Assembly (NCBI RefSeq): GCF_000270205.1
Contig: NC_015913.1
Span: 150,001-182,000, forward strand
Reading direction: 5' to 3'
DNA: 32,000 nt
Source: Candidatus Arthromitus sp. SFB-mouse-Japan
Lineage (GTDB): Bacteria; Bacillota; Clostridia; Clostridiales; Clostridiaceae
The position numbers and the translations under genes are program-made. The notes under the pieces are model-generated. The model was not told the origin of the DNA and did no database searches. It saw nothing but the letters and a program-made list of their open reading frames with translations. Of the stretch, positions 1 through 31,616 are shown in pieces (position 1 is the first letter of the stretch; each line of letters starts with the position of its first letter).

Positions 1-342
1 GGTATTGGGATTGCTCCAATAGGGCATATTGTAACCGTTGATACGGCAGAAGAAGTAGCAGTTAATATTAGTAGTGTTATTGTTTGTGATACAGGTTATA
101 CTTTTGCTAGCTTAAAATCAAAATTAATGACTGTGTTGGAGGAATATCTATTAGAAATCCGTAAGAGTTGGGCAGACCAAAATAATCATGTAGTACGTAT
201 CGCTCAGATTGAATCAAGGATATTAGCTGTAGAGGGTATAGTAGATATCACAAATACTAAGATTAACAGGGTTGAGAACAATCTTACACTAGATAAGTAT
301 CAGATACCTATTATAGGAGATATAACAAATGAGGCAAATTAG
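1..342 (+). CDS. Phage baseplate J (gp47/XkdT-like) protein, C-terminal part; gene begins upstream of the window
   Basis: Frame 1 is open from nt 1 to TAG 340-342; the track ORF 127..342 is only the Met-initiated tail. It lies directly upstream of a DUF2313/XkdU-like gene and overlaps it by 14 nt, as in PBSX-like tail modules. The family call rests mainly on synteny. Confidence 0.55.
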   Translation, partial: GIGIAPIGHIVTVDTAEEVAVNISSVIVCDTGYTFASLKSKLMTVLEEYLLEIRKSWADQNNHVVRIAQIESRILAVEGIVDITNTKINRVENNLTLDKYQIPIIGDITNEAN

Positions 343-1018
343 TCTAATAGAATGGATACCTAAATATCTACAAGAATATAGAGAACTTAAAAAAATAATG
401 GATGTTGAGAATCCTGAAATTAAGCAGTTGTATGATGAAATAGCAATCCTTATGGATAATCTATTTATACATACCTGTAACGAGGATGGCATAGCAAGAT
501 TTGAAAAACTCCTAGATATCAATCCAGATGTGGATGATACTCTAGATATACGTATAACTAGAGTATTAAGTAGATGGACGGATTCCATCCCTTACACTTA
601 TAAAGGATTACTCCGTAAACTTGATATCTTGTGTGGCGAAGGTAATTATGAGATTGAACTTGATAATAATGCTTATACTCTAAAACTAGATGTTTTATCG
701 ATGACAATAAAGCAATTACAAGAGTTAAAGTATATGTTATCATACATGATACCAGCTAATATAGCAATGGATTTAGAAGCCCGAAGGGAAGTTAATATAT
801 CTATATACACTGGCATTGGTATTAACAGGATCAAAAATTCAAAAGTTAATATAAGCCCCCACGTAGAAGACTTAATCAAGGCTTCTTTTTTTGTTGGTGC
901 GGGTGTTAAGAGATGTAAAAAAATTAAAGTGCAAATTAATCAAATAAATTATAAAGCTGTTTTAGGACGTTTTGTGTGTGGGGCAATGAAGGTAGGTGAG
1001 ATAAATGATAATACATAG
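329..1018 (+). CDS. Phage tail protein, DUF2313 / YmfQ / XkdU-like
   Basis: 229-aa ORF with SD AGGAG ~10 nt upstream; the ATG overlaps the upstream gene. The N-terminal region (LIEWIPKYLQEY, NLFIHTCNEDGIARFEKLL) matches my memory of the DUF2313 family that follows baseplate J. Confidence 0.65.
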   Translation: MRQISLIEWIPKYLQEYRELKKIMDVENPEIKQLYDEIAILMDNLFIHTCNEDGIARFEKLLDINPDVDDTLDIRITRVLSRWTDSIPYTYKGLLRKLDILCGEGNYEIELDNNAYTLKLDVLSMTIKQLQELKYMLSYMIPANIAMDLEARREVNISIYTGIGINRIKNSKVNISPHVEDLIKASFFVGAGVKRCKKIKVQINQINYKAVLGRFVCGAMKVGEINDNT

Positions 1019-1769
1019 TTTTAGATTATTAAGTGATAATCTACGCATGAGACCTAAATTATTTTTTAGGGGCAAAAATATAGAGAATTTAGACCAATTC
1101 CCACGCGGCGGCATATCTGTATCTTGGACTGGAGATCCAGAGGTAGTAGATAATGGTATAAAAACTGTACCTGGTACATATGGTATGTTTAACTATGCCA
1201 TGAGCGGCTGGCAAGAATTTACAATGTGTTACACATTTAAGATACATGCCAAGGCGGAATGGAGAGGATTTTTAAATTTAGCTTGGGGGCGCTCTACAGT
1301 AGGTATGCGGATTGAGAACGGATCTGGAGATAGAGCACGTGAAACCTATTTGTGGGGTATCAACAATGATGACAAAGCTATAGTATCAATAGTAGGTGGT
1401 CCACCTTGTTTTGTAACTGATGTTGATAAAATTTATAACTTAATTGTAGTCGTGTCAAAAACAGAGCCTGTTAAGATATACGTAAATGGTAATCAAACAC
1501 ATGAGCTTATACAACCTGATGATAAAAAAGGGTTTAACGGTAAGGGCCATGCTAATATAGACACTCATGCTTTTAATAGGCGATTATCCGCTAATAGATC
1601 TGATGATAATGTAACACATTATGCTCTACGAGTTTGGGATAAGGCTTTAACATATGATCAGATAATGCAAGAGGTGTTAGAAGATGCCAAAGATTATGGT
1701 ATTGATATTACAATACATAGATCTGTCGTAAATAAATTCCGTGTGAATGAATATAAAGTTGGGGAGTGA
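1005..1769 (+). CDS. Phage tail-associated protein with LamG/concanavalin-like jelly-roll domain (putative)
   Basis: 254-aa ORF with SD GGTAGGTGAG and a 14-nt overlap with the upstream gene. The C-terminal THYALRVWDKALTYDQIMQ resembles the terminal strand-helix of LamG-type domains (..lriYnrALsaeEi..). Confidence 0.5.
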   Translation: MIIHSFRLLSDNLRMRPKLFFRGKNIENLDQFPRGGISVSWTGDPEVVDNGIKTVPGTYGMFNYAMSGWQEFTMCYTFKIHAKAEWRGFLNLAWGRSTVGMRIENGSGDRARETYLWGINNDDKAIVSIVGGPPCFVTDVDKIYNLIVVVSKTEPVKIYVNGNQTHELIQPDDKKGFNGKGHANIDTHAFNRRLSANRSDDNVTHYALRVWDKALTYDQIMQEVLEDAKDYGIDITIHRSVVNKFRVNEYKVGE

Positions 1770-1773
1770 GAAA

Positions 1774-2619
1774 ATGAGTTATACAAAAACTGAGTGGATT
1801 GATAATGTTACTATAGTTGATGCTGCAAAACTTAATAAGATTGAGGATCAATTGGAGACTTTAGATACTCAAAAAGTGAGTAGGGATGGGAATAAAGGAC
1901 TGTCCAGTAATGATTTTACAGATGCTTATAAAACTAAGCTTGATAATTTAGAGGATACGATATCAACATCGACGGAAGATAAAGTCGACAAAGAGGATGG
2001 TAAGGGTCTCTCATCTAATGATTTTACCGACGAATATAAGGTCAAAGTTGACTCGATTGCAAATGTGACAACAGACATAACAACAATCCAATCGACACTG
2101 GACACTAAAGTTGATAAAGACGGCAATAAGGTTTTATCCGATAATAATTTTACTAATGAGTTAAAGCAAAAAGTAGAGAGTATAGATGCTTTAAATACTA
2201 CTTTAGATACTAAGGTAGATAAAGTTAACGGTAAAAGTTTATCATCTAATGATTTTACAACTGAGTATAAAAATAAGGTTGACTTAATAGATGGAATACA
2301 AACAAAGGTTGATAGACTAGAGAGAGCATCCGATGTAATAGAGATAACAGCGGTTGATGGTAATATTACGCTGGAGACTAATAAAATATATAGGACTAGT
2401 ATTAGTAGTGATACTGCTTTTGTATTACCTACTATAGATGATAGTACATTCCATCAGATTTTAGTACAAGCTGATGTATCAGATGGAGTTAATATTGATT
2501 TTGGTACTGAGTACTATTTTGGTAGTGGGTATCAAGGAGATGCGGGTAAGTATAATTTTATTTTTGAGCATAACGGCAGTGATTGGGTATATGGTGCTCT
2601 ATACACAGGAGGTCAATAG
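1774..2619 (+). CDS. Tail fibre protein with four phage-tail-repeat-like (SSNDFT) repeats
   Basis: The track ORF starts at 1747, but ATG 1774 follows SD GGGGAG (1761-1766) and the upstream stop (1767-1769). There are four ~30-aa repeats of G(N/K)KxLSSNDFTxxYKxKVD, each preceded by TKVDK. Confidence 0.75.
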   Translation: MSYTKTEWIDNVTIVDAAKLNKIEDQLETLDTQKVSRDGNKGLSSNDFTDAYKTKLDNLEDTISTSTEDKVDKEDGKGLSSNDFTDEYKVKVDSIANVTTDITTIQSTLDTKVDKDGNKVLSDNNFTNELKQKVESIDALNTTLDTKVDKVNGKSLSSNDFTTEYKNKVDLIDGIQTKVDRLERASDVIEITAVDGNITLETNKIYRTSISSDTAFVLPTIDDSTFHQILVQADVSDGVNIDFGTEYYFGSGYQGDAGKYNFIFEHNGSDWVYGALYTGGQ

Positions 2620-4328
2620 TGCAAAATAAGAACTTATTTTTTGAGTATGTGGTATTGACTACTAAGAGTTACGAGTTTGTAAGTCACGTGGTAGCAGGTA
2701 AACAAATGAGATTTACTAAAGCTCAAATAGGTGATGGTGAGGTAATAGATCCAGATAATCTTGCTAATTTGGATGAGCTTATTAACTACAAAAGCGATGC
2801 TGATATAGTAGGTGTACGAGGTGATGGTAAGCAAGCAATTATAGATATTAATATAAATACCGATCATGTAACGGATGCTTTTAAGTTCCGTGAAGTCGGT
2901 ATTTTTGCTGAAATTGATGGAGAGGAAATACTTTATGCTTATCTTAATGCCGGTGATAAATTTGATTACTTAACACCGAATGAAGGAGGTCAAACATTTA
3001 GCCAAACCATACAATTTGTAGTTGCGGTAGGAAATGCTGCAAATGTTGAGATTGTATTTAGCAAGGTAGATATACCTGATGCATCTATAAGATTATCAAT
3101 GCTATCAGACGAGATTATGGATTATATTAATGGAATACAATCTGATATAAGCGAGCACATAACAAATGATATTTTAGGTTCCGGAGTTCATGGGTTAAAG
3201 TTTGATGAGACCCAAGCTAAGTTAAAATACAATAAAAATGGAGCGTGGATAGATATACCAACAGGGCAGGCCGCAGAATCCGAGATTAACAATCATAAAC
3301 TTTTGTCAATCCTTAATGATAGTGGAGTACATGATTTTAGATATGTGGTAGACCGTAAAAAACTCCAATATAAGACTGATACAGGCTGGGCTGATATGGA
3401 GATCGAGGGGACTGGTGATATATCGGTCACCGGATTGACAGCTGACACCTTAAGAGCAGGGGTAACAGTTGTCATAACAAGAGGTGATCAAGAGATTGAT
3501 AGGATTGTTGGATCTTATACAGCTGATGCGACAGCAACGAGCGATGATATTATGCCAGGTAAAACCGCTTATGCTAATGGACAAAAAATTACTGGATCGA
3601 TGATTGCAAATACAGGAGATATACAGTTAAGCAATCCATCTATTGTAAATGATCGGCTTAAGAGTCCTACCATCCCAGATGGTTTATATAAAAACGCTAC
3701 AGTATCTTTTGGACACAATCTTTATCCTGAGTCTATAAAGGCTGGAACTAATATTTATGGGGTTAGTGGTACATATACAAATGATGCTAATGCTACAAGT
3801 GCTGATATATTATCGGGTAAAACTGCTTATGCAAGAGGCAGCAAAATAACAGGTAATATTAGTACTTACTCAGGTGATAGGAGTATATCCGCTCCGACAA
3901 TAAGTGGGAATAATTTGATTACTCCGACAATTAGTAACGGGTATTATAATAATGCTAGATTATCTTTTCCAAAAGGTAATCTATCGCCCGAGAATATCAA
4001 AAAAGGAGTTAATATATTTGGTGTCACTGGCTCAATGGATTCAGGGCGTGTTCTCGGTGCATTGTGGGCAAATTTCTGGAATTCTGGAGGGGGTAAAGAC
4101 ACGGTTGTATGGGATAGTAATTATCTAACAAAGAGGAGTGATTTAACTTTAAGTTTAGCACAATCAGCTAATATTGTATTTAAAAAATCTATTTATACAA
4201 CCGAAAACTCAATGTTCAGTTTCAATTATAATGATGGATATTATAATGCAAGTCAGCAATTTACTATGACGATAAATACTAGCTCTACAGGACAAATAAA
4301 AGTTTGTATTGTTATATTATTAGCTTAA
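2619..4328 (+). CDS. Tail fibre protein with tail-collar-type N-terminal domain (DUF3751-like)
   Basis: GTG 2619 overlaps the upstream stop (TAGTG) and follows SD GGAGG (2608-2612); the track's ATG 2583 lies inside the upstream gene. The N-terminus FEYVVLTTKSYEFVSHVVAGKQMRFTKAQIGDGEV looks tail-collar-fibre-like. Duplicated modules are present: TADATATSDDIMPGKTAYANGQKITG and TNDANATSADILSGKTAYARGSKITG. Confidence 0.75.
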   Translation: MQNKNLFFEYVVLTTKSYEFVSHVVAGKQMRFTKAQIGDGEVIDPDNLANLDELINYKSDADIVGVRGDGKQAIIDININTDHVTDAFKFREVGIFAEIDGEEILYAYLNAGDKFDYLTPNEGGQTFSQTIQFVVAVGNAANVEIVFSKVDIPDASIRLSMLSDEIMDYINGIQSDISEHITNDILGSGVHGLKFDETQAKLKYNKNGAWIDIPTGQAAESEINNHKLLSILNDSGVHDFRYVVDRKKLQYKTDTGWADMEIEGTGDISVTGLTADTLRAGVTVVITRGDQEIDRIVGSYTADATATSDDIMPGKTAYANGQKITGSMIANTGDIQLSNPSIVNDRLKSPTIPDGLYKNATVSFGHNLYPESIKAGTNIYGVSGTYTNDANATSADILSGKTAYARGSKITGNISTYSGDRSISAPTISGNNLITPTISNGYYNNARLSFPKGNLSPENIKKGVNIFGVTGSMDSGRVLGALWANFWNSGGGKDTVVWDSNYLTKRSDLTLSLAQSANIVFKKSIYTTENSMFSFNYNDGYYNASQQFTMTINTSSTGQIKVCIVILLA

Positions 4329-4357
4329 ATTGCAGCTAATTTTTATTATATATGGCG

Positions 4358-4403
4358 AATCCTCTTATTATGCGTTTAATAGGCATTTTAAGAGGATTTT
4401 TAT
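4358..4403 (+). terminator. Putative intrinsic terminator after the tail-fibre operon
   Basis: AATCCTCTTA (4358-4367) pairs with TAAGAGGATT (4389-4398), with partly self-paired sequence between, and is followed by TTTTTA. Confidence 0.45.
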
Positions 4404-4521
4404 TGCAGTAGTGTTATTACATTAAAATATTAAAACAATAGGATTACAGGTTAAATGGTGAGGTGTTTTTTTCGGAGATTAAACAAAACAATAGAAAATT
4501 ATGTAAATGAGGGGAGAACAA

Positions 4522-4953
4522 ATGAAGAATAATGGGATTGTAAAAATTGGATTACTAATTTTAATATTAGTTTTTGCGATAGGGTTAAGTCTTTGGATTG
4601 GAATAGATTTTGCGATAAGGACATTAATACTTGTTATGTGTGTTGATTATGTTTTGGGGTTATCTCTTGCGATAAGCGATAAATCTAAGCATGGTGACGG
4701 AGGGTTATCAAGTCATATAGGGTATAAGGGACTAGTTAAAAAGATTAATATGTTATTACTTGTTGGGGTTGCCGTGATAGTTGAAAACTTTTTAATAGGT
4801 ATGGGACTGCGTGTTAAGTATATAAAAGATATCATTGTTATAGCTTTTGTACTTAACGAGATTATATCGATCCTAGAAAATAGTAAGCTAATGGGATTGG
4901 ACATAACCCATATGGTATCTCAGGCTTTAAAGATATTTAAAAATAAAAAATAA
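4522..4953 (+). CDS. Phage holin (phage_holin_4 / LL-H-TcdE-like family)
   Basis: ATG 4522 (MKNNGIV) lies a few nt after SD GAGGGGAG; the track start 4507 is less likely. The protein has several hydrophobic helices and the motifs VMCVDYVLGL, GLSSHIGYKGLVKKI and LNEIISILEN. It lies immediately upstream of the endolysin. Confidence 0.75.
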   Translation: MKNNGIVKIGLLILILVFAIGLSLWIGIDFAIRTLILVMCVDYVLGLSLAISDKSKHGDGGLSSHIGYKGLVKKINMLLLVGVAVIVENFLIGMGLRVKYIKDIIVIAFVLNEIISILENSKLMGLDITHMVSQALKIFKNKK

Positions 4954-4990
4954 CCTCTTTTCTCAGGTTTGAAGAAAGGAGGTTATTTTT
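4951..4990 (+). terminator. Terminator-like hairpin between holin and endolysin
   Basis: TAACCTCTTTTC (4951-4962) pairs with GAAAGGAGGTTA (4974-4985), giving 12 bp with one G-U, an 11-nt loop, then T5 (4986-4990). The 3' arm contains AAGGAGG. Confidence 0.5.
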
Positions 4991-5101
4991 ATGCAAATTA
5001 AAAAGCTTAGTAATTGTTTTAAAGCTACTTCAACAATTACTAAAGTTAATAAAAGAAATACTACTTTGATTATATCACTTTCGGAGGTATTTTACAAATG
5101 A
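4991..5101 (+). CDS. Hypothetical 36-aa basic peptide (MQIKKLSNCFKATSTITKVNKRNTTLIISLSEVFYK), not in the ORF track
   Basis: ATG lies 8 nt after a perfect SD AAGGAGG (4976-4982). The stop TGA 5099-5101 overlaps the endolysin ATG 5098 (ATGA). There is no homology evidence and the SD is buried in the hairpin. Confidence 0.25.
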   Translation: MQIKKLSNCFKATSTITKVNKRNTTLIISLSEVFYK

Positions 5102-5748
5102 AAATCAATGAGAAACTAGTAAAGTATAATTTTTCGAGTCGTAAAGGAGAAAAAATAAAATACATAACAGTTCATGATACAGGTAATCCAGATAGAGGTG
5201 CCGATGCTGAGGCACATTTTAAATTACATGATAGAGCAGATAGAGGAGCATCAGAACATTATTTTGTTGATGATAAACAGATATTAAGGATTATAAGAGA
5301 TGAGGATAAAAGTTGGCACTGTGGAGATGGAAAAGGAAAGTATGGCATAACAAATGAAAATAGTATTGGAATTGAAATGTGTATCAATAGCGATGGAGAT
5401 TTTGATAAAACCTATAAAAACACACTAGATTTAGTTAAACATCTAATGGGTAAATATAATATATCAATTGATAAAGTAGTTAGGCATTATGATGCTAGTA
5501 GGAAGAGTTGTCCTGATACTTGGTCTGAAAACAATTGGGATGGGTGGGATAAATTTAAAAGTGATTTACAAGTTAAAAAAGATTACACACCATCCATAAC
5601 ATTATTGTATAAAAATGTTTTACAAAGAGAGCCAGATGATGAAGGCTTAAAATATTGGAATGAGCAATTGAATACTGGACTTAGTTTTGGAGATTTACTT
5701 AAAAGATGGGGCGAGAGCGAGGAGTTTAGAGAAAAGTATGCTATATAA
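5098..5748 (+). CDS. Endolysin: N-acetylmuramoyl-L-alanine amidase (Amidase_2/PGRP fold) with C-terminal DUF4214-like domain
   Basis: 216 aa with SD GGAGG 10 nt upstream. Amidase_2 motifs are present: ITVHDTGNP, HYFVDD, SWHCGD, SIGIEMC, VVRHYDASRKSCP. The C-terminal ITLLYKNVLQREPDDEGLKYWNEQLNTGLSFGDLLKRWGESEEF fits the DUF4214 consensus. Confidence 0.9.
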   Translation: MKINEKLVKYNFSSRKGEKIKYITVHDTGNPDRGADAEAHFKLHDRADRGASEHYFVDDKQILRIIRDEDKSWHCGDGKGKYGITNENSIGIEMCINSDGDFDKTYKNTLDLVKHLMGKYNISIDKVVRHYDASRKSCPDTWSENNWDGWDKFKSDLQVKKDYTPSITLLYKNVLQREPDDEGLKYWNEQLNTGLSFGDLLKRWGESEEFREKYAI

Positions 5749-23577: not shown

Positions 23578-23615
23578 TAAAAAATAAAAACAACACACTG
23601 GATGTATGTTGTTTT
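23578..23615 (-). terminator. Intrinsic terminator of the DUF1540 gene
   Basis: AAAACAACA (23587-23595) pairs with TGTTGTTTT (23607-23615). On the minus strand it is followed by a T-run (plus-strand AAAAAATAAAAA). Confidence 0.5.
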
Positions 23616-23973
23616 ATTTGCAAAAAGTATTACAGTAGGTAAAATTTGAATTCATAGCATCACTACCTATGATATTTACATTTTGTGAGGAACACATACC
23701 TGATTCATTGAATTTGCATGCTTTTGCATCGCATTCAATTTCTGGATACATAACTATACCTGAATTTGTGAAGAACTGTTTGATTTCTCCATTTATATTT
23801 AAGTTTGATAAAGAGTTTAATGTGTTTTCTAAATTTCTTTCTTGAAATGTTGAACAGTGAGTATCGGGGGTAATTGATGCATTCAAGCCACTTACGTGAA
23901 TTTTATTTGCAGTACACATATTATTTGTATAGTGAACACAATTATTTGCAGAGCAACTTAGGGAACCATTCAT
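23614..23973 (-). CDS. DUF1540 domain protein (two Cys-rich repeats)
   Basis: Two copies of the pattern C..NC.(H/F)......C.A..I.(V/I).G........C.TF (SCSANNCVHYTNNMCTANKIHVSG..HCSTF; ECDAKACKFNESGMCSSQNVNIIG..YCNTF). Confidence 0.8.
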   Translation of the reverse strand: MNGSLSCSANNCVHYTNNMCTANKIHVSGLNASITPDTHCSTFQERNLENTLNSLSNLNINGEIKQFFTNSGIVMYPEIECDAKACKFNESGMCSSQNVNIIGSDAMNSNFTYCNTFCK

Positions 23974-24970: not shown

Positions 24971-25106
24971 AACTAAGTTTGTAACGATTTAAAACTATTT
25001 TCATATATTGGAATTAAAAAATATTTTATAAGTTATGATTATTTTTTAAGAAAAGTATGAGGATGCAGGTATTAACAATAAAACTAGTAAAGATATGATC
25101 AATATA

Positions 25107-25144
25107 GAGAAGATGCTTCTAAATACGGAAGTATCTTCTTTTTT
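25107..25144 (+). terminator. Strong intrinsic terminator 137 nt downstream of yitT
   Basis: AGAAGATGCTTC (25107-25118) pairs with GAAGTATCTTCT (25127-25138), giving 12 bp with one G-U and an 8-nt loop, then T6. Confidence 0.65.
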
Positions 25145-25278
25145 TGATCATGAGTACGGGTAGTACAGATAATGGTGATATGTTTTATATAATAGATGGA
25201 GTTAGTAAAATGATAGAAGTTAGTTGAAAGATTAGAAATTTAAAACAAATTAATTAGTAATTTAAAGGAGATTTTAAA

Positions 25279-26154
25279 TTGGAAAATAATGATATTAATT
25301 ATAAACTAGATGAAGTGGATGATATTAGTAAAACGCATCTTTATGATGAGATAAATCTTTATAGAGCTACGGTATATACAAACTTTATATTAAATTTTAT
25401 ATTATACAAGCCACCATATAATTTACCAAATGAGCTTGTATTAGATAATACTGGATTTTATTACGTTTATGATGCGGATAAAACTTTAGTTAATGGTGAA
25501 TCTATTAATTTATCAATTGGTGTTAAAGGTACATTTATGGTACTTAGAGCCTTAAATGGGAATAAAACGCTCCAAATAAATTTATCAGATACTTTAACTG
25601 AAATTAATAATTATAGTTTAGATTATAAATGTTTAGATACACCATATGGATTTAAGTTATCAGATGTTATAAATAACTTGGGAACAGATTTAAATGATAT
25701 AAAAATAAATTTTAAGGATGGAGATGGTCAGGGAGATGCAAATCTTTCATTGATTCAAACGGGATTTTCTGTAAAGGATGATGGTGAGAAAACAGTAACA
25801 TTTAATTTCACTATAGAAAATAATGGAAGTGAAGTTGCGAGAAAAGTATTATTTAAGGATATTTTACCTAATAGTGTTAGTTTAAATCTTGCAGGAATTT
25901 ATATAAATTCAGTTTATCCAAATAGTAGGGATGTAAAATTAAATTCTAAGAGTTTATTTGTTAGGGTTCCTGATATATCTGTTGGTGAGTCTGTTACTTT
26001 AACAATTGTTTGTAGATTAAACGATGAATCTTGTAATGAATTTAATGTTGGGGTTATAAGTTATGTTTCAAAGGTGGTTCCTGATGGAACGGGAGCACAA
26101 GCATCCAACATAACAATTAAGCAGATTGTTAGTAATTCTAAGGAGATACAATAG
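25279..26154 (+). CDS. Paralogue A of a leaderless two-domain protein family (unknown N-domain, YGFKLS motif, DUF11-like C-domain)
   Basis: TTG start after SD AAAGGAG; 291 aa. Motifs: PPYNLPNELVLDNTGFYY, CLDTPYGFKLSDV, TFNFTIENNGSEVARKVLFKDILPNS, LFVRVPDISVGESVTLTIVC, NVGVISYV. Confidence 0.7.
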   Translation: MENNDINYKLDEVDDISKTHLYDEINLYRATVYTNFILNFILYKPPYNLPNELVLDNTGFYYVYDADKTLVNGESINLSIGVKGTFMVLRALNGNKTLQINLSDTLTEINNYSLDYKCLDTPYGFKLSDVINNLGTDLNDIKINFKDGDGQGDANLSLIQTGFSVKDDGEKTVTFNFTIENNGSEVARKVLFKDILPNSVSLNLAGIYINSVYPNSRDVKLNSKSLFVRVPDISVGESVTLTIVCRLNDESCNEFNVGVISYVSKVVPDGTGAQASNITIKQIVSNSKEIQ

Positions 26155-26283
26155 CTAAGAAACTATTTATAATTAGTAACACTTAATAGTTTATGCTCAT
26201 ATACTTAAAATAAAAAACTTAATAGTTTTATTTTTAATATATGGGGACGAATTTATAATTGATTTTAATAAAATGAGAAATGT

Positions 26284-26312
26284 AAGGTGCCTCTTATTTT
26301 GGGCACCTTTTT
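26284..26312 (+). terminator. Putative terminator after paralogue A
   Basis: AAGGTGCC (26284-26291) pairs with GGCACCTT (26302-26309) with a 10-nt loop, then TTT. Confidence 0.45.
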
Positions 26313-26335
26313 AAATTAGATTGGAGAGTGAAATT

Positions 26336-26500
26336 ATGAATAACAATATTCCAAAAAAAGGAAATAGAGAGATTTTTAATAGTGAGGTTCCGTTTTCGAT
26401 ATATGAAATTGAGAAAATTATTTCAGGAGATAATTTGAATTCTAATTTTAGAGAGGAAAATGGAGGTCATTATAAAGTAGAAGAAATTTTAGACAAATAA
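26336..26500 (+). CDS. Hypothetical 54-aa protein inside the paralogue array (below the ORF-track cutoff)
   Basis: ATG 26336 follows SD GGAGAGTG. Translation: MNNNIPKKGNREIFNSEVPFSIYEIEKIISGDNLNSNFREENGGHYKVEEILDK*. It starts right after the terminator and ends 43 nt before paralogue B. Confidence 0.4.
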   Translation: MNNNIPKKGNREIFNSEVPFSIYEIEKIISGDNLNSNFREENGGHYKVEEILDK

Positions 26501-26543
26501 GATAACGAATTATTTTAGAAATTTATTTTAAGAGGTTATTAAA

Positions 26544-27440
26544 ATGGAACAAGATAAATTAAAAGATATAAATGATCTTAAGGCTATTATGGATTTTAGA
26601 GTGGATGAAAACATTACTCAAATTAAGTTTAATATTAAGTTGGTTCATCCTCCATATAATTTTTCTGGCATAAGTAATCAATTAATCTTAGATAATTTAG
26701 GAAAATTATATAGTTTAAATTCTAAGGGAACAAATACTTTGGATGGTGAATCGTATTCTTTCCCACTTAATATAGAGGGTTTATTTGTAGATATTAATAC
26801 GGTTAATGATGATAGAATTTTAGAACTAGATTTAGAATTATCTAAAAATGAGGTTTCTAATTCAAATAAATGTATGGATACTCCTTATGGATTTAAATTA
26901 TCTCAGATTGCTAATAATGTAGGAGATAATAGTACACTTAATATTACAAACGGTGTAAATGGGGATGCAGCATTAGATAATAATATGATGAAGTCTGGGG
27001 CTAATTTGATTATCAATCAAAGGGCATTTTCTATAAGAAGAGGTGGTAGTAAGTACTTCTTATTTAATTTTAATATTAAAAATGTAGGAGAATTTAGTGC
27101 TCAGAGGGTATTATTTAAGGATATTATACCTAATGGATTAGTTTTGTGTAATAGGGGAATGTTTATTAAAAATAGTGGATCTCCAATGATGAGAATATCG
27201 AGTGATAATTATACGATAAATGGAAGAGAGTTATTTTTAACGCTTCAAAATATTGATAAAAACAATAGCATTTCTTTAATTTTAGTGTGTTTAGAAAGTT
27301 CATCTTGTCATATGAGTGATTTTAATGTTGGGTGTTTAAGTTATGTTTCTTATTATGGTGTTAATGATGCTACAACACCGACTAGCTCTAGAACCTTAGT
27401 TATAAATGATCTTAGTAATATAAAAAAACTTTTTAATTAG
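26544..27440 (+). CDS. Paralogue B of the leaderless two-domain family
   Basis: 298 aa, SD AAGAGG. Motifs: PPYNFSGISNQLILDNLGKLY, CMDTPYGFKLSQI, LFNFNIKNVGEFSAQRVLFKDIIPNG, LFLTLQNIDKNNSISLILVC, NVGCLSYV. Confidence 0.7.
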   Translation: MEQDKLKDINDLKAIMDFRVDENITQIKFNIKLVHPPYNFSGISNQLILDNLGKLYSLNSKGTNTLDGESYSFPLNIEGLFVDINTVNDDRILELDLELSKNEVSNSNKCMDTPYGFKLSQIANNVGDNSTLNITNGVNGDAALDNNMMKSGANLIINQRAFSIRRGGSKYFLFNFNIKNVGEFSAQRVLFKDIIPNGLVLCNRGMFIKNSGSPMMRISSDNYTINGRELFLTLQNIDKNNSISLILVCLESSSCHMSDFNVGCLSYVSYYGVNDATTPTSSRTLVINDLSNIKKLFN

Positions 27441-27461
27441 TCAAAGGGGCAGCAGATTAAT

Positions 27462-28376
27462 ATGAATGATTTTATAGAAACTGGATCAAAGATAACCCCA
27501 AGGGTTTTATCAAGTAATGAAAACGTAGATTCTAATACTAAAAATAATAGAAAATATACAATTTATTTGATTAACAAAGCTCTTAATGAAAATCCAAAAG
27601 GCATAATTAATCGACTTATTTTAGATAATTGGGGAGATTATTATTATGATTATAGGGTGACGGATTTAAATTCATTAATTGCACCACTTGAGTTTAATTC
27701 TTATGGATTTTCCTTTATCTTATCTTCTTTGAATGAAGATAGATATGTGAAAATTAATTTATATAAAAACCCTCAAGAGGGGATGCGTAACTTGCTTTCT
27801 CCAAGAGATACAAATAAAAGATCTTTATGTACTGACACTCCTTATGGATTTAAATTATCTCAAATTATGGATAATCTTTTAGATATTGATCAGATATCCT
27901 TAGATGGTAAACCGGATGGGGAAAATTTTGATGGTATTATGTATCCAGAGCTTACAATAACCCAAAATATTAATATAGATCGCGATAATTCATGTAATTA
28001 CGCCATTTTCAAATTTAATATATTAAATCCAAATGTTTCAGGAAAAACGGTTTTAGTTGCGAGGAGGATTTTATTTAAGGATATACTTCCATTAGGAACT
28101 TTATTTAAAGAAGTGCTTTTAAATGGAAGGAAGTGTGATAAAGAATTTGTTAATTTAGATGGAAGAAGATTGTTTGTAAAATTACCTATCATAAAAGAAG
28201 GGGAATCTGTTGAGCTTAGTGTTGTGTGTTTAATAGATGAATTTAGTGGAGAGGCTTTAAACACAGGAGCTTTAGTTTATGTTTTTAATAATTTATTTAA
28301 TGCGGAAGAAAATTCGCTTACAACTAAGGTTTACACACTTTTAAGCAATTCATTAAGTTTGGGAGATATGATTTAA
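27462..28376 (+). CDS. Paralogue C of the leaderless two-domain family
   Basis: 304 aa, 21 nt after B, SD AAAGGGG. Motifs: RLILDNWGDYYY, CTDTPYGFKLSQI, IFKFNILNP..ARRILFKDILPLG, LFVKLPIIKEGESVELSVVC, NTGALVYV. Confidence 0.7.
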   Translation: MNDFIETGSKITPRVLSSNENVDSNTKNNRKYTIYLINKALNENPKGIINRLILDNWGDYYYDYRVTDLNSLIAPLEFNSYGFSFILSSLNEDRYVKINLYKNPQEGMRNLLSPRDTNKRSLCTDTPYGFKLSQIMDNLLDIDQISLDGKPDGENFDGIMYPELTITQNINIDRDNSCNYAIFKFNILNPNVSGKTVLVARRILFKDILPLGTLFKEVLLNGRKCDKEFVNLDGRRLFVKLPIIKEGESVELSVVCLIDEFSGEALNTGALVYVFNNLFNAEENSLTTKVYTLLSNSLSLGDMI

Positions 28377-28450
28377 AGGAGTAACTTTTTGATTCTTATT
28401 TTCATATAGTTAAAATAAAATATTTTATTATTTTTATGAGGATGAGATTT

Positions 28451-29458
28451 ATGGATCATAATAAAATTGATGATGTGAAAGAGACTTCACAAACGTGTGA
28501 TACATCTTTTGAAGTGGGAGGAGATCCTTTTACTTTTTGTAAGATTCAGGGCATTATTGAAGAAAGTGAAAACTTTGATCATAGTAATTCAGATGAATAC
28601 GCTATATGTTTTGATGTAAATTGTAATTGCAATGAGAATTTAATGGACTCAAATTACAGTAATTCCAATGAAAAATGTTCTAATATATCAAAATATTTTT
28701 TAGAAGTTATTTTGAAAAGCTCAGGAGATAATTCTTATAGTATTGCTAACAATTTAATATTAGATAGTTGTGGAAAGTATACTTGTGATATTAATCAATT
28801 TGTATTAGATGGGAATCAATTTTTCCCAAATATATATAAGGTAGGAATACTTGAAAATATATATGCAAGAAATAGTGATAGATGTTTGGAATTTAGTTTG
28901 TGTGATGTGAGAGATGGTTGTGAAGAGTGTAGTGAAGATGAGAAAGCAGACACATCTTATGGATTTAAATTATCTCAAATCATATCAAATTTGGGAGATT
29001 TATCACAAATAACTAAAGATTTAACCGTTAATGAGTTTGGGAATATTGAATTTACGCAAAAAGCTGTTATATTTAGTAAATATAATAGGAAGCATATAAT
29101 TTTTAGTTTTAAGCTTAAAAATGTGGGAAGTAATACTGCTAGTAAGATATTATTTAAGGATGTATTACCAGGTGGCGTATGTATTTACGATAATGCAATT
29201 TTTATAAATGGCAAATATGTAAATAAAGATAACCTAAGTATGGATGGGAGAAGAATCATTATAAAATTTGATGATATTGGTGCAGATGAGGAGATTGATT
29301 TAATAATGGTTGGATCAATGCAAGATGGGTATGAGTCCATTAATTGTGGAGTCTTAACGTATGTTAGTGGATTTAAAGAAACTTATGGTGTTAAAGTAAT
29401 GAGTGTTGTTCAGGTTTTAAGTAATATTAAAGCTTTAAAATTAAAAGGATGTAATTAA
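28451..29458 (+). CDS. Paralogue D of the leaderless two-domain family, with Cys-rich N-terminal half
   Basis: ATG 28451 (8 nt after GAGGA) is preferred; the track start is 28436. Motifs: NLILDSCGKY, ADTSYGFKLSQI, IFSFKLKNVGSNTASKILFKDVLPGG, IIIKFDDIGADEEIDLIMV, NCGVLTYV. Confidence 0.7.
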   Translation: MDHNKIDDVKETSQTCDTSFEVGGDPFTFCKIQGIIEESENFDHSNSDEYAICFDVNCNCNENLMDSNYSNSNEKCSNISKYFLEVILKSSGDNSYSIANNLILDSCGKYTCDINQFVLDGNQFFPNIYKVGILENIYARNSDRCLEFSLCDVRDGCEECSEDEKADTSYGFKLSQIISNLGDLSQITKDLTVNEFGNIEFTQKAVIFSKYNRKHIIFSFKLKNVGSNTASKILFKDVLPGGVCIYDNAIFINGKYVNKDNLSMDGRRIIIKFDDIGADEEIDLIMVGSMQDGYESINCGVLTYVSGFKETYGVKVMSVVQVLSNIKALKLKGCN

Positions 29459-29471
29459 TTACATCCTTTTT
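29443..29471 (+). terminator. Intrinsic terminator after paralogue D
   Basis: Perfect palindrome AAAAGGATGTAATT/AATTACATCCTTTT (29443-29470) containing the stop codon, followed by a further T. Confidence 0.6.
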
Positions 29472-29640
29472 GTATTTACATAAAAATATTTTGAATAGGA
29501 GAAAATAACAGTATTAAATAAATATAACAATTTATTAATATACTATGAATAAGGTTATTAACAGTATAATGAACCAATTATTTGAAAATAATAAGTTAGT
29601 GTTTATAGTAGATAACTACACTTATTAGGGGGATATATAC

Positions 29641-30960
29641 ATGATTTTAAGAAGAAATAGTTCTAGTCTATTTGTAGTTTTTTTATTAATTGTCTTAAGC
29701 CTTATAGTATTGTTTTTATCATCGAGAGTTGTTAAAGGAATAAAAGTTAAAAATGAAATTAATGTTAAAGTTTGTAAGGTTCAATCTGGCAATGTTCAAG
29801 ATCAAATTGATGTAAGGGTAATTGTAAAGTCCCAAAATTATAAGGAATATTATGGGAATCAATTGAGGATCAGAAAACTATATGTGAAACATGGAGATTA
29901 TGTTGAAAAGGGTAAAAAGCTTTTATCTTTTGATAATAATGATATTATGAGTCAGTATACCCAAGCGAAGATACAACTTGAAAATGCTGTATTACAAAAG
30001 AATCAAATGCTAATAACAAGAGATAATTTTAAAAAACAGAGGATTGCCTTACAAGAAGAGATAGACAGATTAAGGGAAGATCAAGAGGATAATGAGAGCT
30101 TTATTGCAGAACTTGAAGAATCTTTTGAAGATAAAAAAACATTATCTTCAAAGAATGGTTTAACTATATCTGATTATAGTGAAGAAATTGATAAGCTTAT
30201 AAAAGAGAGTGAGGGATTAAGAAAAATTTCATTAGAATTGGAAAGGCAAATGGATACTATACCTGAGATTACAGATGATCAAATAAAGCTTTTAGATAAT
30301 GCTATAGTTTTAGCAGAGAATAGTCTGAAGAATATCTCAGATAAAATTGAGATGTGTAAAGATATAACAGCTGATTTTAATGGAGTTATTACGGATATAA
30401 AAGTAAACGAAGGGAGTTATACTCAACCAGGATCGGTGATACTTGTTCTTCAGGATCTTCAAAATGTAAAGGGTATCTCTTTAATTCCCCAACAAAATAT
30501 TTCAAGTGTAAAAGTTGGGCAAGAAATTGTAATAAACGATCCTATTGGTGTGTATAACGGGAAAATAACAGCTATAAGTGATTTAGCAGTGAATTCTAAC
30601 AATTATTTGAATATTATAAATGAAGATATGAGGGATAATTATTTAGTTGCTGATATTGAGATATTAAATCCTAATGATAAATTAAAGGTTGATTTTGATT
30701 TAAATGGGAAAATTAATTTAGATAATACAATGGATATTTTAAGGATACCAATAGAGTGTATTTTATATGATGAATCTAATACTCCTTATGTGTTTATAGT
30801 TAAAAATAATATCGCTTGTAAAAATATTATATATCCAGGGAAAGTTTCCAATAATTACATAGAAATTGTTGGGGGTATAACTTTAAATGATAGCGTGATT
30901 TTAAATCCTCCCAAAACTTTATCTGACAAGACAAAGGTAAAGGTTGTGTCAAATAAATGA
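29641..30960 (+). CDS. Membrane-fusion / periplasmic-adaptor family protein (HlyD/MacA/YknX type)
   Basis: N-terminal TM anchor. Lipoyl-like half-motifs (VKHGDYVEKGKKLLSFD; ITADFNGVITDIKVNEGSYTQPGSVILVLQD) flank a long coiled coil. The C-terminal region is beta-rich. Confidence 0.8.
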   Translation: MILRRNSSSLFVVFLLIVLSLIVLFLSSRVVKGIKVKNEINVKVCKVQSGNVQDQIDVRVIVKSQNYKEYYGNQLRIRKLYVKHGDYVEKGKKLLSFDNNDIMSQYTQAKIQLENAVLQKNQMLITRDNFKKQRIALQEEIDRLREDQEDNESFIAELEESFEDKKTLSSKNGLTISDYSEEIDKLIKESEGLRKISLELERQMDTIPEITDDQIKLLDNAIVLAENSLKNISDKIEMCKDITADFNGVITDIKVNEGSYTQPGSVILVLQDLQNVKGISLIPQQNISSVKVGQEIVINDPIGVYNGKITAISDLAVNSNNYLNIINEDMRDNYLVADIEILNPNDKLKVDFDLNGKINLDNTMDILRIPIECILYDESNTPYVFIVKNNIACKNIIYPGKVSNNYIEIVGGITLNDSVILNPPKTLSDKTKVKVVSNK

Positions 30961-31616
30961 TGATGAGTCTTAAGAATATAACAAAGTTTTATAAAGATGG
31001 AAATTTAGAGTATAGAGCTTTATATAATATTTCTTTTGATATAGATTATGGAGAATATGTTTTTATATATGGGGGAAGCGGATCTGGTAAAACTACGTTA
31101 TTAAACATTTTAGGATGTATGGATACTTTTGATTATGGTAAGTATACTTTTTGTGATATGGATATAGGAAATAAAAAAGATATTGAATTATCTAGACTTA
31201 GAAATGAAAAATTCGGTTTTATATCTAACAGTATTAAGTTGATACCTGAGCTTAATTTATTTGAAAATGTTGGAATACCACTTTTGTATTCAAAATTCTC
31301 AAAAGAAGAAAAAAGAGAAAGAATACTCAAATATTTGTCTATGTTTTCTATAGAGAAATATAAATATTTATCTATTGACTCTTTGTGTAAAAAAGATAAG
31401 CAAATGGCTTGTATAGCTAGAGCGTTAGTTGGAGGAGCTAAGATAATTATAGGAGATGAGCCTTGTAAGTACTTAGAAAGAAGTGATTGTAAAGAAATAT
31501 TTGAAATTCTTTTTAGTCTAAATAAACAAGGTATTACTTTAATAATAAGTGGGGCTGAATTAAATCCATACTTAGATGTTGGTAAAGTTATAAATTTAAG
31601 AGATGGAATGATGTAG
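30957..31616 (+). CDS. ABC transporter nucleotide-binding protein, MacB/LolD/YknY type, with degenerate catalytic motifs
   Basis: ATGA overlap with the adaptor gene. Walker A GGSGSGKTT and Walker B IIIGDE are present. However, FGFISN replaces FGFVFQ (Q-loop), SLCKKDKQMACIARAL replaces LSGGQxQRVAIARAL, EPCKYLE replaces EPTGxLD, and LIISGAE replaces the VTH(D/E) H-loop. Confidence 0.8.
   Translation: MMMSLKNITKFYKDGNLEYRALYNISFDIDYGEYVFIYGGSGSGKTTLLNILGCMDTFDYGKYTFCDMDIGNKKDIELSRLRNEKFGFISNSIKLIPELNLFENVGIPLLYSKFSKEEKRERILKYLSMFSIEKYKYLSIDSLCKKDKQMACIARALVGGAKIIIGDEPCKYLERSDCKEIFEILFSLNKQGITLIISGAELNPYLDVGKVINLRDGMM

Follow-up and report, generated by a model that had tools for sequence, protein, structure and literature searches.

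We analysed a window of 32,000 nucleotides (nt) from Candidatus Arthromitus sp. SFB-mouse-Japan (NC_015913.1, positions 150,001 to 182,000), a segmented filamentous bacterium (SFB), and found that it carries a tandem array of four genes, here called A to D, which encode a family of diverged two-domain proteins. The original prediction for this stretch, which was made from the sequence alone, had proposed four same-strand open reading frames (ORFs) at this place; all four were present on the + strand and are diverged paralogues which align over their full length. It had overlooked a further conserved ORF, s54, which lies between A and B. The coding features of the array are listed below, where L007 and similar labels denote SFB lineages other than those of the mouse and rat strains.

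25279-26154, + strand: gene A, 291 amino acids (aa), TTG start with an AGGAG ribosome-binding site (RBS); residues 1-31 form a predicted disordered tail, residues ~33-136 the N-domain and residues ~156-284 the C-domain (CLIPPER)
26336-26500, + strand: s54, an acidic ORF of 54 aa (FSIYEIEKII..G....FRGENG..YKVEEILDK), called in mouse, rat, L007 and L009 and conserved among them
26544-27440, + strand: gene B, 298 aa
27462-28376, + strand: gene C, 304 aa
28451-29458, + strand: gene D, 335 aa, cysteine-rich (15 Cys) with the C-terminus KGCN, of the type shared with single-copy lineages

The motifs which had been picked out in the translations did align in a proper comparison: A to D share 31-36% identity from end to end with 40 invariant columns, among them L-x-L-D, D-T-x-Y-G-F-K-L-S, L-F-K-D-x-x-P, N-x-G-x-x-x-Y-V and a C-terminal S-N. 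The YGFKLS motif translates where it was said to lie, reading TPYGFKLS at 25639-25662, 26880-26903 and 27837-27860 and TSYGFKLS at 28952-28975. Its claimed conservation at the nucleotide level in B to D also held, as these three genes have 28-31 of the 33 nt of an extended motif in common, versus 24-26 of 33 in comparisons with A. D most likely starts at the ATG at 28451, which has GAGGA 9 nt upstream, and not at 28436, because the upstream in-frame ATG falls within D's own GAGGA ribosome-binding box; this start gives 335 aa, in line with the ~335 aa proposed before.

None of the four proteins contains a hydrophobic stretch (the maximum Kyte-Doolittle mean over 19 residues was 1.0-1.3), and no LPXTG motif or transmembrane segment was found in any of them. 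All four are acidic, with a pI of 4.6-5.5. A signal peptide hidden in an N-terminal extension can be excluded because the ORFs are already maximal, and the earlier description of the proteins as leaderless, without transmembrane segment or LPXTG, is thus correct.

The C-terminal domain had been suggested to be DUF11-like. PF01345 (DUF11, now CLIPPER) matched A above the curated cut-off (33.0 vs 24.6 bits, residues 170-250), and comparison of the C-domain with adhesin repeats from giant proteins gave an hhalign probability of 99.2% (E = 8e-19). By these profile comparisons the C-domain of A to D is a true CLIPPER/DUF11 immunoglobulin (Ig) domain. The expected fit to the PF01345 and TIGR01451 models was seen only in part: A passed the PF01345 cut-off, B and D stayed below it, C gave no match, and TIGR01451 was sub-threshold in all four proteins.

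CLIPPER, as DUF11 has been renamed, is a CnaA-like Ig domain which often contains a Lys-Asn isopeptide bond catalysed by an Asp (PMC12617251). Among 380 aligned adhesin repeats, this Lys was present in 163 of the 207 repeats which covered the position, the Asp in 370/380 and the Asn in 69/69. At the same positions the SFB family has Gln160 (41/42 sequences), Asp194 (40/42) and Asn256 (41/42). The stabilising Lys-Asn bond is therefore impossible in the SFB family, as the Lys has been replaced by Gln, although the catalytic Asp and the Asn are kept. Approximately 15% of the CLIPPER repeats in large fibrillar adhesins (P0028-P0167) also carry Gln in place of Lys with Asp and Asn kept, and it is for this Q-D-N subtype that the SFB family is fixed. 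A to D therefore resemble the CLIPPER domains of fibrillar adhesins (structure 9IFR; PMC12617251) in having a homologous C-domain, modelled as a nine-strand Ig-like sandwich, with the Asp and Asn in place. They differ from these adhesins in the residue at the Lys position and in their architecture, since each SFB protein has one CLIPPER domain instead of tandem stalk repeats, and no signal peptide, adhesive tip, LPXTG or other sorting signal was found in A to D.

An AlphaFold2 model of A, produced from a 25-sequence family alignment, was compact and confident (pLDDT 80.3, pTM 0.81). In this model residues 1-31 are disordered and are followed by a beta-rich N-domain (residues 35-104), the YGFKLSxI motif, which makes a short strand and helix (residues 124-134), and the nine-strand Ig-like sandwich (residues 156-284, mostly at a pLDDT of ~90). 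Foldseek matches for the whole chain included the pilins BcpA and T6, at TM-scores of only 0.27-0.33. The N-domain was also modelled alone (pLDDT 80, pTM 0.72). It had no match in Pfam, NCBIfam, PHROGs or PADLOC, none in a PDB sequence search, and none when its model was searched with Foldseek against PDB or BFVD at E ≤ 0.001, which agrees with the earlier statement that it belongs to no recognised family. A phage or defence module was rejected as an identity for A to D, as PHROGs and PADLOC gave no matches. With hidden Markov models (HMMs), a few giant adhesins could be aligned through the N-domain, and the register was plausible (LILDN against v.v.D.iP and DTPYGF against N.A.vsYgF). The proposal that the N-domain is a degenerate CLIPPER repeat was unsupported by hhalign (P = 0.07-0.33) and the N-domain HMM barely outscored shuffled sequences against the adhesins, so that such an origin is no more than possible.

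We searched for relatives of the family in large sequence collections. A profile search of 5.8 billion proteins returned 27 matches, of which the sole named one was from Candidatus Arthromitus sp. SFB-rat-Yit, and an exhaustive HMM search of 1.84 billion cluster representatives returned 782 proteins at E ≤ 0.001. Among the 150 matches listed from these 782, about 25 proteins (281-523 aa) matched over their full length in a single stretch; all the others were 700-6,800 aa long and matched only profile positions ~150-290, in many repeats. The full-length relatives which were named or could be located were all SFB (SFB-rat, SFB-turkey and the chicken metagenome-assembled genome (MAG) 'Candidatus Dwaynia gallinarum'), and no full-length relative from outside SFB was present among the listed matches. 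A GTDB scan found a single locus, from a chicken SFB MAG. As judged from these searches, the whole family is restricted to SFB and its C-terminal domain belongs to a very large superfamily. The novelty here is a lineage-restricted family which pairs an N-domain without detectable relatives with a CLIPPER domain without its isopeptide bond. The accessible text of the SFB genome papers does not describe this family, nor does that of Pamp et al. include it among the 'SFB-specific clusters'.

Proteins identical to A were found on mouse-type metagenome contigs with the same gene order, and the complete rat SFB genome (AP012210.1) carries the same locus. The site of the array is fixed, between a YitT/DUF2179 gene and a yknX-ABC-macB module, and the number of copies at this site varies: one in L010 and in turkey/chicken-type SFB (L012/L013), two in L014, four, with s54 in addition, in mouse, rat and L007, and at least ten in L009, where the contig ends. 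The L009 copies (L009:2273-12729, Logan run ERR13725800) lie in tandem with gaps of 10-32 bp and one overlapping pair, and one of them encodes 523 aa with a Glu/Lys/Asp-rich N-terminal extension of ~200 residues. A neighbour-joining tree, which has no support values, separated four orthologous types, placed the single copies with the cysteine-rich D type and assigned the expansion in L009 to the A and B types. Members of the D type have 8-15 Cys and the single-copy forms 12-13, and the C-terminal KGCN is found in the D orthologues of multi-copy lineages. Orthologues of s54 (47-54 aa; mouse, rat, L007 and L009) share 45-72% identity and 13 invariant residues with a dN/dS of 0.20, and s54 had no family match in our searches. 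It heads the proposed s54-B-C unit and may be a small assembly partner.

Between mouse and rat, A to D are 66-75% identical and s54 is 72% identical, compared to 77-95% for the flanking genes; the corresponding identities to L007 are 36-48% and 57-81%. The divergence extends across both domains and peaks in the N-terminal tails. Diversifying selection had been offered as one explanation for four divergent copies in a row, and it is not borne out, since gene-wide dN/dS values for A to D (0.20-0.36) are above those of the neighbours (0.02-0.18) but below 1. A to D evolve faster than their neighbours and are under net purifying selection. Among mouse-SFB contigs C is 98-100% identical, and an apparent length polymorphism of C among these contigs was an artefact of N-runs in scaffolds.

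The same data bear on whether A to D could be decaying and now functionless fragments of a former giant fibrillar adhesin. Their C-domain is homologous to the repeats of adhesins of 1,000-6,800 aa and the isopeptide lysine has been lost, both of which would fit such an origin. Decay is hard to reconcile with intact ORFs and good RBSs in all lineages, with the dN/dS values above, with 19 invariant columns across 25 family sequences, with four orthologous types conserved across lineages or with the confident, compact AlphaFold model of A (pLDDT 80, pTM 0.81). We regard this explanation as very improbable, and it is largely refuted by selection and conservation.

We also examined the intergenic DNA of the array. 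Sigma-E promoters and sigma-K promoters have a common CATA-type -10 element and distinct -35 elements (ATA vs AC; PMC3789822), and for clostridia the consensus of sigma-K is given as [a/c]AC[a/c]-N16-CATA-N3-TA (PMC5749712); the consensus used for motif assignment was taken from these two papers. SFB encode all four sporulation sigma factors (PMC3533761). The following promoter-like motifs and leader elements were found:

24984-25009, + strand: P1, sigma-K-type motif ACGATTTAAAACTATTTTCATATATT (-35 AC, N16, -10 CATATATT), just past the YitT stop codon and upstream of A
25053-25067, + strand: RBS-like box AAGTATGAGGATGCA in leader 1, kept in mouse, rat, L009 and L014 and in part also in L007
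25106-25141, + strand: leader-1 hairpin (15 pairs) with a T-run, resembling an intrinsic terminator (fold z-score -4.9)
26179-26205, + strand: P2, sigma-K-type motif ACACTTAATAGTTTATGCTCATATACT, upstream of the s54-B-C unit
26284-26309, + strand: leader-2 hairpin with a T-run, directly upstream of the s54 RBS, with compensatory stem changes between lineages
28384-28410, + strand: P3, sigma-K-type motif ACTTTTTGATTCTTATTTTCATATAGT in the gap between C and D, present in mouse and rat

When the DNA between YitT and the first copy was aligned for five lineages, the first invariant island was (G)TAAC-N16-(T)CATATA(G/T)T, and the island at P2, TAGTAAC-N17-CATATA.T, was invariant in mouse, rat, L007 and L009. 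The pattern AC-N16/17-CATATAnT had three matches on the + strand of the window (24984, 26179 and 28384) versus 0.51 expected, which coincide exactly with the sites upstream of A, of s54-B-C and of D. Across six further SFB loci (~103 kb), 10/10 sense-strand matches lay in array leaders, giving 13/13 in a total of ~135 kb of SFB DNA. All seven lineages examined have the motif upstream of the first copy, in surrounding intergenic DNA which is divergent. The DNA upstream of the array therefore agrees with the sigma-K consensus at the level of motif and conservation, from which we infer sigma-K dependence, and the array would then consist of three late mother-cell transcription units (A; s54-B-C; D). 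The original prediction had described one array between two terminators; instead we found three promoter-headed units, with the upstream 'terminator' downstream of the first promoter. Its option of spore-surface components made by the mother cell gains independent support from the conserved sigma-K-type motifs.

Where the array has several copies, a vestigial RBS-like box (TATGAGGATGCA) comes after each of the first two promoters, within the leader regions 24984-25149 and 26179-26315 (+ strand), and the GAGGATG box is a genuine RBS in single-copy L012 and upstream of D. The leader hairpins are found 40-60 nt past the RBS-like box, with fold z-scores of -3 to -6 and the real RBS directly after them. 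The position of the leader-1 hairpin is kept in rat, L007, L009 and L014 with different stem sequences, and no known RNA family was found in the leaders using Rfam. This arrangement of box and hairpin could be an attenuator, a relic of a deleted gene copy or an element which stabilises the mRNA.

Attenuation-type regulation, which the leader hairpins suggest, would also suit a cytoplasmic assembly or function unrelated to sporulation, in which case the upstream element would serve as an operator or as a promoter for a different sigma factor. A to D are leaderless, soluble and acidic, which fits such a role, and the -35 'GTAAC' also resembles the -35 boxes of extracytoplasmic function (ECF) sigma factors. 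However, the -10 CATATAnT does not fit the CGT-type -10 of ECF promoters. It does fit mother-cell sigma factors (PMC3789822), and Ig-like adhesin domains have no known cytoplasmic role. We consider a cytoplasmic function of this kind to be rather unlikely.

The genes downstream of D had been described as an unusual exporter. They encode a YknX-type adaptor, an ABC ATPase and a MacB/FtsX permease, which together are an ordinary module common in Firmicutes, and they are parted from D by two elements:

29443-29470, + strand: terminator-like hairpin at the end of D, which separates the array from yknX
29582-29609, + strand: sigma-A-like promoter between D and yknX

The ABC ATPase gene is absent from L010, reduced to a 38-codon stub in L014 and split in L004, and the array is kept in all three. 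Functional coupling of the array with the YknX/ABC/MacB module is unlikely, because the array persists where the ATPase has been lost or fragmented and because a terminator and the module's own promoter intervene. The ATPase (30957-31616, + strand) is fast-evolving, with 69% identity between mouse and rat and a dN/dS of 0.33, and the adaptor (87% identity) and the permease persist.

These observations also affect the possibility that A to D are vegetative surface or secreted adhesins which leave the cell by non-Sec export, either through YknX/ABC/MacB or through the flagellar type III apparatus, with the disordered N-tail as the signal. CLIPPER domains normally occur in extracellular adhesins (PMC12617251), the first 31 residues are disordered in the model of A, and synteny with yknX-ABC-macB is kept in every lineage. 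Export of this type is made less likely by the terminator and separate sigma-A-like promoter between D and yknX, by the retention of the array where the ATPase is missing, split or a stub of 38 aa, and by the fact that the sole conserved promoter elements are of the sporulation type. Export of folded cytoplasmic proteins of 30 kDa is not known for pumps of the MacB type. Taken with the points in its favour, we think this explanation unlikely.

Other neighbours of the array include a DUF1540 cysteine-rich gene (23614-23973, - strand), which is unusually well conserved: it is 95% identical between mouse and rat with a dN/dS of 0.02 and retains 76-77% identity even to distant SFB lineages. The window also contains the end of a prophage (329-5748, + strand) encoding a Mu Gp48-like baseplate protein, a tail-collar fibre protein, a holin and an amidase_2 endolysin with DUF4214. 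DUF4214 is the domain by which 'Cluster.1' of Pamp et al., a set of secreted SFB-specific proteins, is marked. Known SFB Th17 epitope strings were not found in the window.

The reading we favour, at about an even chance, is that A to D are structural components of the outer layer of the spore which are made by the mother cell. SFB do form endospores, as the original prediction had assumed for this lineage. A to D, probably together with s54, would be transcribed late in sporulation in the mother cell from the three sigma-K-type promoters. Made in the mother-cell cytoplasm, they would not need a signal peptide, and they would assemble from outside onto the developing spore as part of the coat, the exosporium or an appendage. 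The A, B and C types would have been added later to an ancestral core, the cysteine-rich D type. Leaderless acidic proteins without a transmembrane segment or LPXTG are as expected for deposition from the mother-cell cytoplasm, and cysteine richness is typical of cross-linkers of the exosporium and coat. Both the faster divergence and the variation in copy number (1 to at least 10) agree with a structural layer which faces outward. This reading is suggested by the combination of leaderless acidic Ig proteins, a cysteine-rich core member, sigma-K-type promoters, few coat genes and rapid divergence; SFB genomes have very few recognisable spore-coat genes (PMC3533761). We found no SFB spore-surface protein described in the literature searched.

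It should be noted that several points weigh against a role in the spore layer. The promoter assignment was made from a short motif and its conservation, transcription from two of the three promoters would have to cross a terminator-like hairpin, and secreted fibrillar adhesins are otherwise the typical carriers of CLIPPER domains (PMC12617251). The neighbours of the array are housekeeping genes, and no canonical coat, exosporium or collagen-like gene was found in the Pfam-annotated part of the window. Furthermore, the formation of intracellular offspring by SFB probably uses the same developmental programme, and a mother-cell promoter would then not tell spores from offspring.

A to D might therefore be mother-cell-made proteins which decorate, or help to release, the intracellular offspring (the holdfast-bearing infective cells) under the same late sigma factor and which serve in host-specific attachment. 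The promoter evidence for this is the same as for the spore layer. In addition the proteins contain an adhesin-type Ig domain, their copy number and sequence vary with the host of the SFB (1 in turkey/chicken, 4 in rodent) and SFB attachment is host-specific (PMC13153320). However, proteins of the mother-cell cytoplasm would not easily cross the engulfing membrane to reach the offspring wall, and the near-identity of C among mouse-SFB contigs also argues against this role. On balance we see it as an improbable explanation.

We compared the array to known spore systems. The P29a/P29b spore-appendage cluster of Clostridium taeniosporum consists of diverged same-strand paralogues, with DUF11 in 4 of 9 and five predicted sigma-K promoters (PMC5749712). 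The SFB array is like this cluster (P29a/P29b with CRD1/CRD2/HYPO2/HYPO3; PMC5749712) in having diverged same-strand paralogues of ~29-38 kDa, DUF11 domains, intergenic sigma-K-type promoters and a host organism in the Clostridiaceae. The C. taeniosporum proteins are made for a spore surface structure, and the SFB proteins were compared to them by description and DUF11 content. We class the SFB family as probably working like the P29a/b proteins and not as a proven member of that group. Unlike in C. taeniosporum, no collagen-like partner (GP85/CL2) was found in the window's Pfam-annotated genes or in the genes called at related loci, where no dedicated G-X-Y repeat scan was made. The SFB N-domain and YGFKLS motif were also confined to SFB among the listed matches from the search of 1.84 billion proteins, and SFB spores are not known to carry appendages.

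DUF11 is also carried by the spore proteins CrdA, CrdB and CrdC of the Bacillus cereus group (PMC5749712), and 0-4 DUF11 domains are found in F-Anchor-3, the F-ENA anchor of Clostridium aceticum (PMC12357932). Compared by description, the SFB proteins are like these in that DUF11 occurs in spore-associated proteins made without Sec export (PMC5749712, PMC12357932). They are unlike them in that the partner domains DUF4183 and CsxA-like were not detected in the SFB proteins. The Ena endospore-appendage subunits (DUF3992; S-/L-ENA) are leaderless beta-sandwich proteins with a disordered Cys-bearing N-tail, as in the D type, and are encoded in small paralogue clusters. The SFB proteins have no DUF3992 match in Pfam and, being two-domain proteins, differ from the Ena subunits in fold and size, so that this is an analogy of principle only.

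Among the commensals which induce intestinal Th17 and IgA responses, SFB have been studied best; they are strictly host-specific and pass from one host to another as spores. It is conceivable, though unlikely, that the family makes up the outermost, host-facing layer of the form in which SFB are transmitted (spore or released offspring), with the N-domain binding a host ligand and lineage-specific expansion underlying host specificity; the copy-number contrast would then be 1 in bird, 4 in rodent and at least 10 in another lineage. If this were true, the array would represent an adhesin system which is independent of Sec and is assembled from the mother cell, and A to D would be candidates for the spore antigens that dominate in the host's immune response.

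As clade-restricted, fast-evolving and copy-number-variable proteins with late-mother-cell-type promoters, A to D are concrete candidates for the SFB spore surface. They could be used as targets for spore purification, for detection antibodies, in transmission studies and in tests of the role of the spore surface in host specificity. If the spore-layer reading is correct, the known use of CLIPPER/DUF11 would be widened from the stalks of secreted adhesins to leaderless spore-associated proteins, in a Lys-to-Gln variant of the domain.

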